Assembly: GCF_057098645.1 (NCBI RefSeq)
Contig: NZ_CM169472.1
Length of the DNA stretch: 64,000 bases
Direction: 5' to 3' (one strand)
Positions 6,001 to 15,000 of the stretch are shown here, piece after piece. The stretch's first letter is position 1. Each line of letters opens with the position of its first letter. A program made the position numbers.

Positions 6001-9000
6001 TTACTGCGGCGCAGTTCACGATTTTCACGCTCCAGCTCTTTCAGACGCTGACGTTCAGCGGTGGTGAGCCCGCCATCACCGCCCCCGGTATCCCGCTCAT
6101 GCTGGCGAACCCAGACACGCAGAGTCTCCGGCGTACAGCCAATCTTTGGAGCAATGGAACAAATTGTCGCCCATTGTGAGTCATATTCATCCTGACTTTC
6201 CAGAACCATACGAATCGCCCGCTGACGGACTTCGGGGGAAAAACGAGTATTTTTAGTCATCCTGTTTACCTCTTTCTCAGGGAGTTTAGTCTCCAGGATT
6301 TCCGGGGCGGTTCAGCTTGGCGCCAGAATGGAGAATATTTAACGAGAAATAGAAGCTTTGTATCAGACGGGCTTCCCTGAATAGAGAAGTTAAATAATCA
6401 GGATGATGCTAATGAATATCAGGAACAAGGTGAGTGTCTTCATGTTCACTGAAACAGGGTGTCACAAAAAATATGGCTATAAGATGATCAATGTGATTTG
6501 AAATATTTATAGGTTTACAGGGGGCTGGGCATGCATATCTTACTGCAATGCAGAATATGTGCTGCTTGGCGCAGCTCTTTATTGAGAATGTTCAATCTTT
6601 TGTTTCAGTTTCGTGAAGGATACGGACGGTTTCTTGTGTAATATTATACATCGCCTGTTTATCTTTACTGCATACTCCTGCAAGTGTTAATGCTACTCCA
6701 GCATAAATTTCTGGATAACTATGTGTAAATATATCCAGTGAGTTTACATGTTTCTCTTTCATTCCTGCATCACAACGAACCTTATTTATACCTGTCGCCA
6801 TTGATTGGGGAGGGCTAGAGCCTTCTGCACGAAAATAGTGATGTGACAGATCTGAGATAGCTTTGTATCCTTCTGCCTGGTTCAGGCCTGGAGCAGTCCA
6901 TGTTTTACAAAAATACTCGGCAGCGTAACGTGTTGCAAGAGCGGCATCAGACGAGGAACCTGAGGTTCCGCTCATGACCGATAATCTCATCCGAATAAAA
7001 ATATACCAATTGGTATACCAAGTTTATACCAAGAGCCAAAAAACAAAGGGGCTACCATTTGGTAACCCCTTGATTATTTGGCGGAAGCGCAGAGATTCGA
7101 ACTCTGGAACCCTTTCGGGTCGCCGGTTTTCAAGACCGGTGCCTTCAACCGCTCGGCCACACTTCCGGAATGACGCGCACTATAAACATCCCGATGCGGC
7201 GTGTAAACCCCTAATTTGTTTGTTTGCCTGAAAAACAGCCAAAAGTGCATTGATAGCGTGAAATAACAGCAGATTGATCATTTCATCACCATGAATTCCT
7301 TCTCTTTTGCTCGTTTAGCAACTGGCTAAACATCCCACCGCCCGGCAAAAAGAAAAATAGGTCCATTTTTATCGCTAAAAGATAAATCCACACAGTTTGT
7401 ATTGTTTTGTGCAAAAGTTTCACTACGCTTTATTAACATTACTTTCTGGCGACGTGCGCCAGTGCAGAAGGATGAGCTTTCGTTTTCAGCATCTCACGTG
7501 AAGCGATGGTTTGCCTTGCTACAGGGACGTCGCTTGCCGACCATGTGCGCCCGGTGTCCTGCCGGTGTCGCAAGGAGGAGAGACGTGCGATATGAATAAC
7601 GAGGAAACATTTTACCAGGCCATGCGGCGTCAGGGCGTTACCCGGCGCAGCTTTCTCAAATATTGTAGTCTGGCTGCCACGTCGCTGGGATTAGGCGCGG
7701 GAATGGCACCAAAGATTGCCTGGGCGCTGGAGAACAAACCCCGCATTCCAGTGGTATGGATCCACGGTCTGGAATGCACCTGCTGTACCGAATCTTTTAT
7801 CCGCTCCGCTCACCCGCTGGCAAAGGACGTCATCCTTTCCCTGATTTCCCTCGATTACGACGATACTTTGATGGCTGCCGCCGGAACCCAGGCGGAAGAA
7901 GTCTTTGAAGACATCATCACGCAATACAATGGCAAATATATCCTCGCAGTAGAAGGTAATCCGCCGCTGGGCGAGCAGGGGATGTTCTGTATCAGCAGCG
8001 GTCGACCGTTTATTGAGAAACTCAAACGTGCCGCTGCCGGAGCCAGCGCGATTATCGCCTGGGGAACCTGTGCGTCCTGGGGCTGCGTGCAGGCCGCGCG
8101 ACCTAATCCGACACAGGCAACGCCTATCGACAAAGTCATCACCGACAAACCCATTATCAAAGTACCTGGCTGCCCGCCGATCCCGGATGTGATGAGCGCC
8201 ATCATTACTTACATGGTGACTTTTGATCGCTTGCCAGATGTCGACAGAATGGGCCGTCCACTGATGTTTTATGGTCAGCGTATCCACGATAAATGCTATC
8301 GCCGCGCTCACTTCGACGCCGGAGAGTTCGTCCAGAGTTGGGATGATGACGCTGCCCGCAAAGGTTATTGCCTGTACAAAATGGGCTGCAAAGGGCCTAC
8401 CACCTATAACGCCTGTTCCTCCACACGCTGGAATGATGGCGTTTCTTTCCCAATCCAGTCTGGTCACGGCTGCCTGGGCTGTGCGGAAAATGGTTTCTGG
8501 GATCGCGGTTCGTTCTACAGCCGCGTGGTCGATATTCCGCAAATGGGTACTCATTCCACCGCCGATACCGTCGGTTTAACCGCGCTTGGCGTGGTGGCAG
8601 CGGCTGTTGGTGTGCACGCAGTCGCCAGCGCCGTTGACCAGCGCAGACGTCATAACCAGCAACCTACAGAAACCGAACATCAGCCAGGCAATGAGGATAA
8701 ACAGGCATGAGCACTCAGTACGAAACTCAGGGATACACCATCAATAATGCCGGACGCCGCCTGGTGGTCGACCCGATTACGCGCATTGAAGGCCACATGC
8801 GCTGCGAAGTGAATATTAACGATCAGAATGTGATCACCAATGCTGTCTCCTGCGGCACCATGTTTCGCGGGCTGGAGATCATCCTGCAAGGGCGCGACCC
8901 GCGCGATGCGTGGGCGTTCGTTGAACGTATCTGCGGCGTCTGTACTGGCGTACACGCTCTAGCTTCGGTTTACGCCATCGAAGATGCCATCGGTATTAAA

Positions 9001-12000: not shown

Positions 12001-15000
12001 TCCCGACTACACATGGCAGGTGGCGATTGCTGACCTTGAACAGAGCGAAGCCATCGGAGATCGCTTTGGCGTCTTTCGCTTTCCCGCCACATTAGTGTTT
12101 ACCGGCGGAAACTATCGCGGCGTGCTGAATTGTATTCACCCGTGGGCGGAACTGATAAACCTGATGCGTGGGCTTGTCGAACCACAACAGGAGCGTGCCT
12201 CATGAGCGAAACTTTTTTCCATCTGCTGGGGCCAGGAACGCAACCGAACGATGACAGTTTCAGCATGAATCCACTGCCGATCACCTGTCAGGTGAATGAT
12301 GAACCGAGTATGGCAGCCCTGGAGCAATGTGCTCACAGCCCGCAGGTGATTGCGCTGTTAAACGAGTTACAACATAAACTAAGCGAACGCCAGCCGCCGT
12401 TGGGCGAGGTGCTGGCAGTCGATCTGTTAAATCTCAATGCCGACGATCGTCACTTTATCAATACGCTTCTCGGGGAAGGGGAAGTGTCAGTGCGCATTCA
12501 GCAGGCTGACGACAGTGAAAGTGAAATACAGGAGGCGATCTTCTGCGGATTATGGCGGGTGCGCAGACGTCGCGGCGAAAAGTTGCTGGAGGACAAACTG
12601 GAGGCCGGCTGCGCGCCGCTGGCGTTGTGGCAGGCGGCCACGCAAAATCTCTTGCCGACAGATTCGCTGTTACCGCCGCCCATTGATGGCCTGATGAATG
12701 GCCTACCGTTGGCGCATGAGTTACTGGCGCATGTACGTAACCCCGACGCGCAGCCGCACAGCATTAATCTGACGCAATTACCCATCAGCGAGGCTGACCG
12801 GCTTTTTCTCTCACGTCTCTGTGGGCCGGGAAATATTCAGATTCGTACCATTGGCTATGGCGAGAGCTATATCAACGCCACGGGGTTACGCCATGTCTGG
12901 CATTTACGCTGTACGGACACCTTAAAAGGCCCTTTACTGGAAAGTTATGAAATCTGCCCAATACCGGAAGTGGTGCTGGCAGCGCCAGAAGATTTGGTCG
13001 ACTCTGCGCAGCGGCTTAGCGAGGTATGTCAGTGGCTGGCGGAAGCTGCACCGACGTAAAAAGACGGTAAGTATCGCTTTCAGGCTTATGAATATCGCAA
13101 TCGGCGAATACCTCTGGTCGTAGAGTTTCAGGATAAAGAGGGAGATCTACCATTAACGGGTTATTTTTCTCTCTTCGCCTACAGGAGTGCGCATGTGGGA
13201 TGTCATTGATTTATCGCGCTGGCAGTTTGCGCTGACCGCGCTGTATCACTTTTTATTTGTACCCCTTACCCTGGGGCTGATTTTTTTGCTGGCTATCATG
13301 GAAACCATTTACGTGGTCACCGGCAAAACAATCTACCGCGATATGACGCGCTTCTGGGGTAAGCTCTTCGGTATCAACTTTGCTCTTGGCGTGGCTACCG
13401 GCCTGACCATGGAGTTTCAGTTTGGTACTAACTGGTCATTCTATTCCAACTATGTGGGCGATATTTTTGGCGCACCGCTGGCGATGGAAGCATTAATGGC
13501 CTTCTTCCTCGAATCCACCTTTGTCGGGCTGTTCTTCTTCGGCTGGCAGCGGCTGAATAAATACCAGCACCTGCTGGTGACGTGGCTGGTGGCGTTCGGT
13601 TCAAATCTCTCTGCATTGTGGATATTGAATGCCAACGGTTGGATGCAATACCCGACCGGTGCGCATTTTGATATCGACACCCTGCGTATGGAGATGACCA
13701 GCTTCAGCGAGCTGGTCTTTAACCCGGTCAGCCAGGTGAAATTTGTGCACACCGTAATGGCGGGCTACGTGACCGGGGCCATGTTTATTATGGCGATCAG
13801 CGCCTGGTATTTACTGCGCGGACGCGAGCGCGATGTCGCATTACGCTCGTTTGCCATCGGTTCCGTCTTCGGTACTCTGGCGATTATCGGTACCCTGCAA
13901 CTCGGAGACAGTTCTGCGTATGAAGTCGCGCAAGTACAACCGGTAAAACTGGCGGCGATGGAAGGGGAGTGGCAAACGGAACCTGCACCTGCACCGTTCC
14001 ATGTGGTTGCCTGGCCGGAACAGGATCAAGAGCGTAACGCCTTTGCCATCAAAATTCCCGCGCTGCTAGGGATCCTCGCCACTCACTCATTAGATAAACC
14101 CGTGCCGGGTCTGAAGAATTTGATGGCTGAAACCTACCCACGCTTGCAACGCGGACGTATGGCCTGGCTGTTAATGCAGGAAATATCGCAAGGCAATCGT
14201 GAGCCGCATGTGTTGCAGGCATTCCGGGAGCTGGAAGGCGACCTGGGCTACGGCATGTTGCTCTCCCGCTATGCGCCGGATATGAATCATGTCACAGCCG
14301 CACAGTACCAGGCGGCGATGCGTGGCGCGATACCTCAGGTTGCGCCGGTATTCTGGAGTTTCCGCATCATGGTGGGCTGTGGTTCCCTGCTGCTACTGGT
14401 GATGCTGATTGCGCTTGTCCAGACGCTGCGTGGCAAAATCGACCAGCATCGCTGGGTGCTGAAAATGGCGCTCTGGAGTTTGCCGTTGCCGTGGATTGCG
14501 ATTGAAGCCGGGTGGTTTATGACCGAGTTTGGTCGTCAGCCGTGGGCGATACAGGACATCTTACCGACATACTCCGCGCACTCCGCTTTAACCACAGGAC
14601 AACTGGCTTTCTCACTGATCATGATCGTAGGGCTTTACACCCTGTTCTTAATCGCCGAAGTCTACCTGATGCAGAAATATGCCCGTCTGGGGCCGAGCGC
14701 GATGCAGAGTGAACAACCGACGCGGCAACAGGGGTAAAGGAGAAAATCATGTTTGATTATGAAACATTGCGCTTCATCTGGTGGCTGCTGATTGGCGTGA
14801 TCCTGGTGGTCTTTATGATCTCCGACGGATTTGACATGGGGATTGGCTGTTTGCTGCCGCTGGTGGCGCGTGATGATGATGAACGCCGGATAGTGATTAA
14901 TAGCGTTGGTGCGCACTGGGAAGGCAATCAGGTCTGGTTGATCCTCGCAGGTGGGGCATTATTTGCCGCCTGGCCCAGAGTGTATGCAGCGGCGTTTTCC

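Follow-up and report, generated by a model that had tools for sequence, protein, structure and literature searches.

Gene starts, ATGA overlaps and probable translational coupling in the hydrogenase-1 operon of an Escherichia coli genome

Two questions are raised by the hydrogenase-1 locus of Escherichia coli: where each of its genes begins, and whether the short overlaps between them tie the translation of one gene to that of the preceding one. An earlier note on the DNA studied here (the window, 64,000 nucleotides of contig NZ_CM169472.1 from NCBI RefSeq assembly GCF_057098645.1) had described 4-base overlaps at the hyaA/hyaB, hyaC/hyaD, hyaD/hyaE and hyaE/hyaF junctions, had read them as tight translational coupling across the operon, and had taken the starts given for hyaA and hyaF by a mechanical list of open reading frames (the ORF track) to be upstream artefacts.

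Here the window carries hyaABCDEF, the E. coli hydrogenase-1 operon, with standard gene boundaries, and hya is established as a single operon. Six co-directional genes, for the small subunit, the large subunit, cytochrome b, the protease, HyaE and HyaF, follow one another in that order, both in the ORFs and in RefSeq, and their coding coordinates are those given by RefSeq for an E. coli O145 genome with a single-base difference (12131) across window positions 7000-15000:

7592..8710, + strand: hyaA, hydrogenase-1 small subunit precursor, 372 aa, with a Tat signal peptide (RefSeq WP_001058323.1, same coordinates)
8707..10500, + strand: hyaB, hydrogenase-1 large subunit, 597 aa (RefSeq WP_000107384.1; translation)
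10519..11226, + strand: hyaC, b-type cytochrome subunit, 235 aa (RefSeq WP_001186424.1)
11223..11810, + strand: hyaD, hydrogenase-1 maturation protease, 195 aa (equivalog NF007616, 1-195 of 195; RefSeq)
11807..12205, + strand: hyaE, thioredoxin-like hydrogenase-1 (Hyd-1) chaperone, 132 aa (equivalog NF008563, 1-132 of 132)
12202..13059, + strand: hyaF, hydrogenase expression/formation protein, 285 aa (RefSeq WP_000004885.1; Pfam HupH_C in two stretches)

Profile matches agree with these assignments: HyaA scored 674.6 bits against the [NiFe] small-subunit profile TIGR00391 (cut-off 179.5), HyaD 442 bits against NF007616 (cut-off 261) and HyaE 281.7 bits against NF008563 (cut-off 210), the latter two over their full length, and HyaF reached 146.5 bits with HupH_C; the Tat signal model TIGR01409 matched residues 43-72 of the 399-aa hyaA ORF. 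From the mature residue L46 onwards, HyaA is 100% identical to the first 327 (native) residues of PDB 3uqy chain S, and PDB 2hfd aligns to HyaE 1-132 with two differences, S25F, common to O145, and G109C, private to the window. Compared with E. coli K-12 hyaABCDEF (RefSeq; PDB 3uqy, 4gd3, 2hfd), the genes, order, lengths and junction geometry are the same, with strain-level substitutions only (the two in HyaE). Moreover, at least 80% of the query was present at 90-100% identity in 5,417 of 5,426 complete E. coli genomes. From the identity to the crystallised enzyme, we infer a functional, O2-tolerant, H2-oxidising hydrogenase. Consensus-only scans returned no promoter-like site on the + strand of 7000-13300, and no more terminator-like matches in the hya region than in shuffled sequence.

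The five junctions of the operon were defined as follows:

8707..8710, + strand: ATGA overlap of hyaB start and hyaA stop, 4 bases, invariant in 12 loci
10501..10518, + strand: hyaB-hyaC spacer of 18 bases with an AAGGAG Shine-Dalgarno motif, length invariant in 12 loci
11223..11226, + strand: ATGA overlap of hyaD start and hyaC stop, 4 bases, invariant in 12 loci, with AAGGAG/AAGGGG conserved upstream
11807..11810, + strand: ATGA overlap of hyaE start and hyaD stop, 4 bases, conserved in Escherichia
12202..12205, + strand: ATGA overlap of hyaF start and hyaE stop, 4 bases, conserved in Escherichia and Citrobacter On2M

In each overlap, the TGA stop of the upstream gene shares bases with the ATG of the next one, and all four are exact ATGA junctions both in the sequence and in the RefSeq coordinates, as had been described. 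They were rightly called ordinary for the operon: the overlaps, like the shorter gene starts, are already known and present in public annotation, and co-directional E. coli genes are more often at -4 than at any other distance (PMC6728339, PMC10666635). Within this genome, four of the five hya pairs are at -4, compared with 2 of 29 co-directional neighbours in the next 50 kb (Fisher p = 0.0015).

Comparison of 12 loci from Escherichia, Edwardsiella and Citrobacter separated two kinds of junction. The A/B, B/C and C/D distances were -4, +18 and -4 in all 12, the B/C spacer being fixed in length and variable in sequence, whereas D/E and E/F varied from -7 to +5. The D/E junction is -7 in Edwardsiella (GTGTTGA/GTGTTAA) and +5 in Citrobacter sp. 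On2M; three Edwardsiella species have an E/F distance of +3, and E. hoshinae one of -1 (TGATG). All of these variants fall inside the range reported to permit reinitiation. Over the final 8 codons, synonymous-codon identity exceeded that of the gene body in hyaA (0.90 vs 0.60) and in hyaC (0.83 vs 0.63), but in hyaB, whose end does not overlap, it did not (0.52 vs 0.62).

Judged from this geometry, the overlaps most likely lead to translational coupling by termination-reinitiation, and we consider it probable that the best explanation of the locus combines standard boundaries, four ATGA overlaps and such coupling. A ribosome terminating at UGA would be held by the Shine-Dalgarno motif that lies within ~20 bases of the upstream gene's end and would restart at the AUG one base back, so that translation of the downstream genes would depend on that of the upstream ones. 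HyaB synthesis would thus be tied to that of HyaA, the two being subunits of a 1:1 catalytic heterodimer, and the accessory proteins HyaD, HyaE and HyaF would be tied serially to HyaC, while hyaC itself would initiate independently from the strong Shine-Dalgarno motif in its fixed 18-base spacer. Coupling cannot span the operon, because these 18 bases separate hyaB and hyaC, and the claim that it runs across the whole of it fails at this point. The interpretation in the earlier note stands for the ATGA overlaps and the artefactual starts, and is weaker for its "tight translational coupling", which was drawn from geometry.

Experimental work on other E. coli genes lends weight to coupling: four of five native ATGA pairs tested were translationally coupled, termination-reinitiation was demonstrated for hyfHI (hydrogenase-4), astDB, ydbH/ynbE and menDH, and coupling dropped steeply with intergenic distance (PMC6728339, PMC10666635). 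Like these pairs, the overlapping hya genes have a -4 ATGA and, within the 3' end of the first gene, a Shine-Dalgarno motif for the second, and hyfHI is also a pair from a [NiFe]-hydrogenase operon; their coupling was measured with two-reporter constructs, whereas that of hya is inferred from sequence alone. No experimental report on hya coupling was found in the literature searched.

The principal alternative is that the overlaps represent compact packing, with the downstream genes translated mainly de novo from their own internal Shine-Dalgarno motifs and with little or no dependence on upstream translation. The calculated Shine-Dalgarno pairing energies were -11.3 (hyaA), -6.1 (hyaB), -8.8 (hyaC), -8.5 (hyaD), -9.3 (hyaE) and -10.1 kcal/mol (hyaF), a value of -6 kcal/mol or better being seen at only 14% of the positions in the region; the motifs of hyaB, hyaD, hyaE and hyaF lie inside the 3' end of the preceding gene and are conserved in relatives. 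Predicted ribosome-binding-site accessibility was in the 79th-95th percentile for hyaB-hyaE and the 61st for hyaF, and no RNA structure that would force coupling by sequestering the downstream ribosome-binding sites was predicted. Since the genes have their own motifs and the predicted sites are accessible, independent initiation could supply much of their translation, as it does in the bioBF ATGA pair, which showed no coupling and was initiated de novo in a reporter study (PMC6728339, PMC10666635).

Packing is also favoured by the shift of D/E and E/F to small gaps in relatives, and by the homologous O2-tolerant membrane-bound hydrogenase of Cupriavidus necator. Its operon hoxKGZMLOQ encodes small, large and cytochrome b subunits, a protease, the HyaE-like HoxO and the HyaF-like HoxQ (34% identity) in the same order, with an additional gene, hoxL, and its corresponding junctions are gaps of +38, +65, +401, +27, +10 and +31 (PLSDB annotation); -4 overlaps are confined to later junctions, hoxQ/R and hoxT/V. 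A hydrogenase of this type can thus do without the overlap. Against packing stand the invariance of the A/B and C/D ATGA in three genera, the higher conservation of synonymous sites immediately before them, the confinement of every variant junction to the reinitiation-compatible range, and the coupling of most tested ATGA pairs together with its steep dependence on distance. On balance, we regard packing with de novo initiation as unlikely, although with a chance that deserves consideration, and retain termination-reinitiation as the preferred reading.

A different possibility concerns the boundaries themselves, namely that HyaA begins at TTG 7511 (399 aa) and HyaF at TTG 12130 (309 aa), which would make the hyaE/hyaF overlap 76 rather than 4 bases. 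Both frames are open in the window, and the ORF track opens hyaA 27 codons 5' of the annotated ATG 7592. The features concerned are:

7511..7591, + strand: spurious 27-codon hyaA extension, part of the hya 5' leader (weak Shine-Dalgarno, stops or indels in relatives, outside TIGR00391)
7572..7582, + strand: hyaA Shine-Dalgarno motif AAGGAGGAGAG (-11.3 kcal/mol)

Shine-Dalgarno pairing is -2.4 kcal/mol at TTG 7511 against -11.3 at ATG 7592, and every aligned relative keeps the motif of the latter, as AAGGAGAAGAG or GGGGAAGAA. Most other Escherichia loci carry an in-frame TAA ("ccataag") within the extension, and relatives show 1-base indels and one large deletion in it. Further, position 1 of TIGR00391 corresponds to residue 29 of the 399-aa ORF, i.e., residue 2 after ATG 7592, and the profile does not cover the 27 additional codons. 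By these sequence criteria, ATG 7592 is the real start, TTG 7511 lies in a frame that happens to be open upstream of it, and the view of the long start as an artefact is borne out on this evidence. The overlaps, from which the earlier note had argued, are uninformative here, since nothing in the operon precedes hyaA, which thus lacks an upstream junction. An intermediate candidate, GTG 7565, was rejected: its Shine-Dalgarno pairing is weak (-5.5 kcal/mol), Citrobacter On2M lacks the segment that holds it, and all differences between this segment and Edwardsiella are non-synonymous.

Alignment to reference proteins, which had been proposed as a check, was informative in part. The RefSeq proteins (HyaA 372 aa, HyaF 285 aa) fit the short starts, while the solved HyaA chains cannot separate the candidates, because they begin at the mature, signal-cleaved L46, downstream of both. 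The transcription start does not decide the matter either. The text of the promoter papers examined does not state its distance from the ATG, and it therefore offers no argument against TTG 7511. A sequence resembling an IscR site at ~7382-7408 presumably places the transcription start upstream of 7511, and a mapped start would for that reason not discriminate against the TTG. Folding of the leader (7436-7610) was no more stable than that of shuffled sequence (z = -0.64).

For hyaF, the ORF track opens at TTG 12130, 24 codons 5' of the annotated ATG 12202:

12130..12201, + strand: spurious 24-codon hyaF extension, inside the hyaE coding sequence (weak Shine-Dalgarno, private SNP, stops in relatives)

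This TTG exists only because of a window-specific SNP, T12131, which differs from the near-identical O145 strain and has no exact match among 5,414 complete E. coli genomes (best 70/71). Pairing is -3.0 kcal/mol at TTG 12130 vs -10.1 at ATG 12202, and Edwardsiella, Citrobacter On2M and E. coli SCPM-O-B-8794 have in-frame stops just 5' of the ATG. Alignments of distant HyaF homologues to the 309-aa ORF begin no earlier than residue 30-32, and the start of C. necator HoxQ falls within ~2 residues of the HyaF ATG. Taken together, this sequence evidence identifies ATG 12202 as the real start and TTG 12130 as an artefact, in agreement with what had been proposed. GTG 12142 was likewise rejected, with a pairing of -1.4 kcal/mol and in-frame stops in E. 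coli SCPM-O-B-8794, Edwardsiella and Citrobacter. With Shine-Dalgarno motifs absent from both TTG codons, extensions broken in relatives, and both the family profile and distant homologues starting at or past the ATG, the long-start reading is effectively refuted already, and we give it next to no credence.

Equally negligible is the idea that the four ATGA junctions reflect coincidence, or gene callers that favour overlapping starts: single -4 instances are unremarkable because this distance is the commonest genome-wide, but hyaB has no alternative start because an in-frame stop lies 2 codons 5' of its ATG, the equivalog profiles match HyaD and HyaE from their first residue, junctions are conserved between genera, and -4 is enriched relative to neighbouring genes.

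As a separate observation on the ORF track, which lists longest frames, it over-extends hyaA by 27, hyaF by 24 and appC by 2 codons.

The finding has little significance beyond quality control, the public annotation being right. It makes a modest descriptive addition, in that A/B, C/D and the 18-base B/C spacer are fixed in Escherichia, Edwardsiella and one Citrobacter, with accessory junctions that drift within the reinitiation-compatible range. This pattern fits the published view that short overlaps, which are 4.5-fold enriched for subunits of heteromeric complexes, serve stoichiometric co-expression (PMC6728339, PMC10666635). More speculatively, the ATGA at A/B, the +18 at B/C and the ATGA at C/D, with their synonymous constraint, might constitute a selected two-module translation programme, in which HyaA and HyaB are made 1:1 so that the heterodimer assembles co-translationally ahead of Tat export, and the accessory proteins are throttled by serial reinitiation from HyaC; we hold this to be doubtful, with only a small chance of being correct. 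If it were true, breaking an overlap while leaving the proteins unchanged would impair Hyd-1 assembly.

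Across window 7000-13500, 5,417 of 5,426 complete E. coli genomes match at least 80% of the length, and the best among the matches listed are E. coli O145 strains, reported as 100.0% identical. Gene coordinates were taken from the RefSeq annotation of E. coli O145 RM9872 (L001; window coordinate = L001 + 5499), which differs from the window at one base, 12131, between 7000 and 15000. The hyaA-hyaF frames are free of internal stops and translate to the expected lengths, and HyaD and HyaE match their equivalog profiles over the full length, starting at residue 1.

Genes of the hya operon and following gene, from the RefSeq annotation of O145 RM9872
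7592-8710, hyaA, 372 aa
8707-10500, hyaB, 597 aa
10519-11226, hyaC, 235 aa
11223-11810, hyaD, 195 aa
11807-12205, hyaE, 132 aa
12202-13059, hyaF, 285 aa
from 13193, appC, next operon

The A/B, C/D, D/E and E/F junctions are all exact ATGA, in which ATG opens the downstream gene and TGA closes the upstream one, and an 18-base gap containing AAGGAG separates hyaB from hyaC. The four 4-bp overlaps reported in the earlier note were therefore correct as written, and their description as ordinary for the operon matches public annotation of hya; they are already known, belonging to a textbook operon, and can be read off the RefSeq coordinates for thousands of genomes. Four of the five hya pairs have this spacing, versus 2 of the 29 adjacent co-directional pairs in the 50 kb that follow (Fisher p = 0.0015), a stretch colinear with O145 RM9872 at 18 mismatches. 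Given this enrichment, the full-length HyaD and HyaE profiles, and an in-frame stop two codons 5' of the hyaB ATG that leaves no alternative hyaB start, the four junctions are more than a chance pattern.

The ORF list, made of mechanical longest-ORF calls, opens hyaA at TTG 7511 (399 aa) and hyaF at TTG 12130 (309 aa), hence the span 7511-13059 of the original finding; on several independent grounds, both long starts are artefacts. For hyaA, AAGGAGGAGAG lies upstream of ATG 7592 and is predicted to pair with the 16S 3' end at -11.3 kcal/mol, against -2.4 at TTG 7511 and -5.5 at the in-frame GTG 7565, which was also rejected. The match to the TIGR00391 small-subunit profile starts directly after the Met encoded by the ATG, at residue 29 in the 399-aa ORF. 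In the upstream region aligned from 11 loci, the Shine-Dalgarno motif and ATG are kept in all, and TTG 7511 is contradicted by an in-frame TAA ('ccataag'; 'ccatgtg' in the window) in 4 of 5 Escherichia comparators outside the window lineage, by a 1-base indel in E. coli E69 and Edwardsiella, and by the loss of the whole segment in Citrobacter sp. On2M. As for the alignment to reference proteins that had been proposed, solved HyaA structures cannot tell the candidates apart, since their chains begin at mature residue L46, after Tat signal cleavage. The earlier note had read the artefacts from the overlaps themselves, an argument that fails for hyaA, whose start adjoins no junction; the conclusion itself stands on the other evidence.

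The hya 5' leader (7436-7591) is well conserved between Escherichia and Edwardsiella, with about 80 bases of the region absent in Citrobacter sp. On2M. Its predicted RNA fold is no better than that of shuffled sequences (z = -0.64). The conserved stretch includes a perfect inverted repeat, CTGGCG-ACGTG-CGCCAG, at 7446-7462, and could be a protein-binding site.

For hyaF, CAGGAG precedes ATG 12202 (predicted pairing -10.1 kcal/mol), and the rejected TTG 12130 and GTG 12142 reach -3.0 and -1.4 kcal/mol. In-frame stops occur directly 5' of the ATG in Edwardsiella, Citrobacter On2M and E. coli SCPM-O-B-8794; in distant plasmid homologues (Cupriavidus, Variovorax, Paracoccus), alignment to the 309-aa ORF begins only at residue 30-32, and C. 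necator HoxQ has its annotated start no more than about two residues from the HyaF ATG. Moreover, TTG 12130 is created solely by the T at 12131 in the window, a position that is G in O145 RM9872; a 71-base query across this base matched none of 5,414 complete E. coli genomes exactly (best 70/71). The T changes HyaE codon 109 from GGT (Gly) to TGT (Cys) and may reflect either a private mutation or an error in sequencing; Gly109 is invariant across 12/12 comparator loci and is also the residue in 2hfd, the K-12 structure (GIHPW motif). The ORF track also opens appC too early, at GTG 13187, two codons before its annotated ATG at 13193 (window 13187-13195), an artefact of the same type as the long hyaA and hyaF starts: a CAGGAG Shine-Dalgarno motif precedes the ATG (-6.9 kcal/mol), and no such motif precedes the GTG (+1.6).

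Around the operon, identity to O145 RM9872 ends abruptly left of 6315, and in no complete genome is window 1-2805 covered in one continuous stretch with the remainder of the window; 1-7166 looks like a variable island or a prophage end at a tRNA. Window 13054-62754 follows O145 RM9872 colinearly, differing at just 18 single bases, and carries appCB-cbdX-appA, etk-etp-gfc, cspH/G, tor, cbpAM, rut, put, efe and phoH, with rutA annotated as frameshifted in the comparator.

Other features of the window
5863-5979, minus strand, ALIL pseudoknot, an IS3-family frameshift signal
~6592-6984, EspV pseudogene fragment (O145 annotation), adjoining tRNA-Ser
7079-7166, minus strand, tRNA-Ser gene, just upstream of hya
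25986-26408, cspA thermoregulator (Rfam), cspG leader
37091-37169, minus strand, naRNA4 (Rfam)
62391-62584, minus strand, Ysr251 (Rfam), antisense to phoH

A HyaF scan with one genome per species gave 11 usable loci (several Escherichia species or clades, E. albertii, four Edwardsiella species and Citrobacter sp. On2M), in each of which the six genes were placed by tblastn and ORF extension.

Junction distances in bases (negative, overlap; positive, gap) in Escherichia; Edwardsiella; Citrobacter On2M
A/B: -4; -4; -4
B/C: +18; +18; +18
C/D: -4; -4; -4
D/E: -4; -7 (GTG start); +5
E/F: -4; +3 in three species, -1 (TGATG) in E. hoshinae; -4

The B/C spacer is 18 bases in every locus with variable sequence, and Shine-Dalgarno-like motifs 5' of each downstream start are kept throughout. 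Codon identity, scored at matching amino acids as the fraction encoded by the same codon when the window lineage is set against four divergent comparators, is raised in the last 8 codons relative to the gene body at the ends of hyaA (0.90 vs 0.60) and hyaC (0.83 vs 0.63) only, with values of 0.52 vs 0.53 for hyaD, 0.62 vs 0.56 for hyaE and 0.52 vs 0.62 for the non-overlapping end of hyaB; these comparisons are phylogenetically non-independent and thus descriptive. In the homologous operon of Cupriavidus necator, by contrast, the corresponding junctions are gaps (+38, +65, +401, +27, +10, +31), with -4 overlaps only further downstream. The overlaps are therefore a trait of the enterobacterial Hyd-1 operon, not of the whole hydrogenase class.

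In Edwardsiella (family Hafniaceae; L007-L010), HyaA and HyaB share 93-96% protein identity with E. coli, with an alignable promoter/leader, and HyaE and HyaF only 75-78%; either the structural genes are unusually conserved or the operon was transferred between lineages. A 250-base 'Ruminococcus sp.' contig (L013, NZ_JAJCLZ010000176.1) is 100% identical in protein to residues 141-223 of E. coli hyaF and most likely marks contamination of that assembly by E. coli.

The -4 ATGA is the commonest spacing of co-directional E. coli genes, 707 of 2,987 such pairs lie between -8 and +6, and subunits of heteromeric complexes show a 4.5-fold enrichment of short overlaps (PMC6728339, PMC10666635). Of five native E. 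coli ATGA pairs that were assayed, four, including hydrogenase-4 hyfHI, were coupled by termination-reinitiation, which an internal Shine-Dalgarno motif usually aids and which falls steeply with distance (PMC6728339, PMC10666635). A literature search found no paper testing coupling in hya. That each downstream gene instead initiates independently of upstream translation seems unlikely, and is kept as a live rival because every downstream start has its own Shine-Dalgarno motif, local folding predicts no hidden ribosome-binding sites (accessibility percentiles: hyaB 87th, hyaD 87th, hyaE 79th, hyaF 61st), and the bioBF ATGA pair was uncoupled in the cited reporter study. The earlier observation is confirmed and its interpretation partly supported: coupled units are likely, and coupling across the whole operon is an overstatement, given the 18-base B/C gap. 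By analogy with the published E. coli ATGA pairs and short overlaps, the best reading is two-unit coupling, in which hyaA and hyaB, encoding the 1:1 catalytic heterodimer, would form one coupled unit and hyaC-hyaD-hyaE-hyaF a second, serial one, with the strong Shine-Dalgarno motif in the B/C spacer giving hyaC an independent start.
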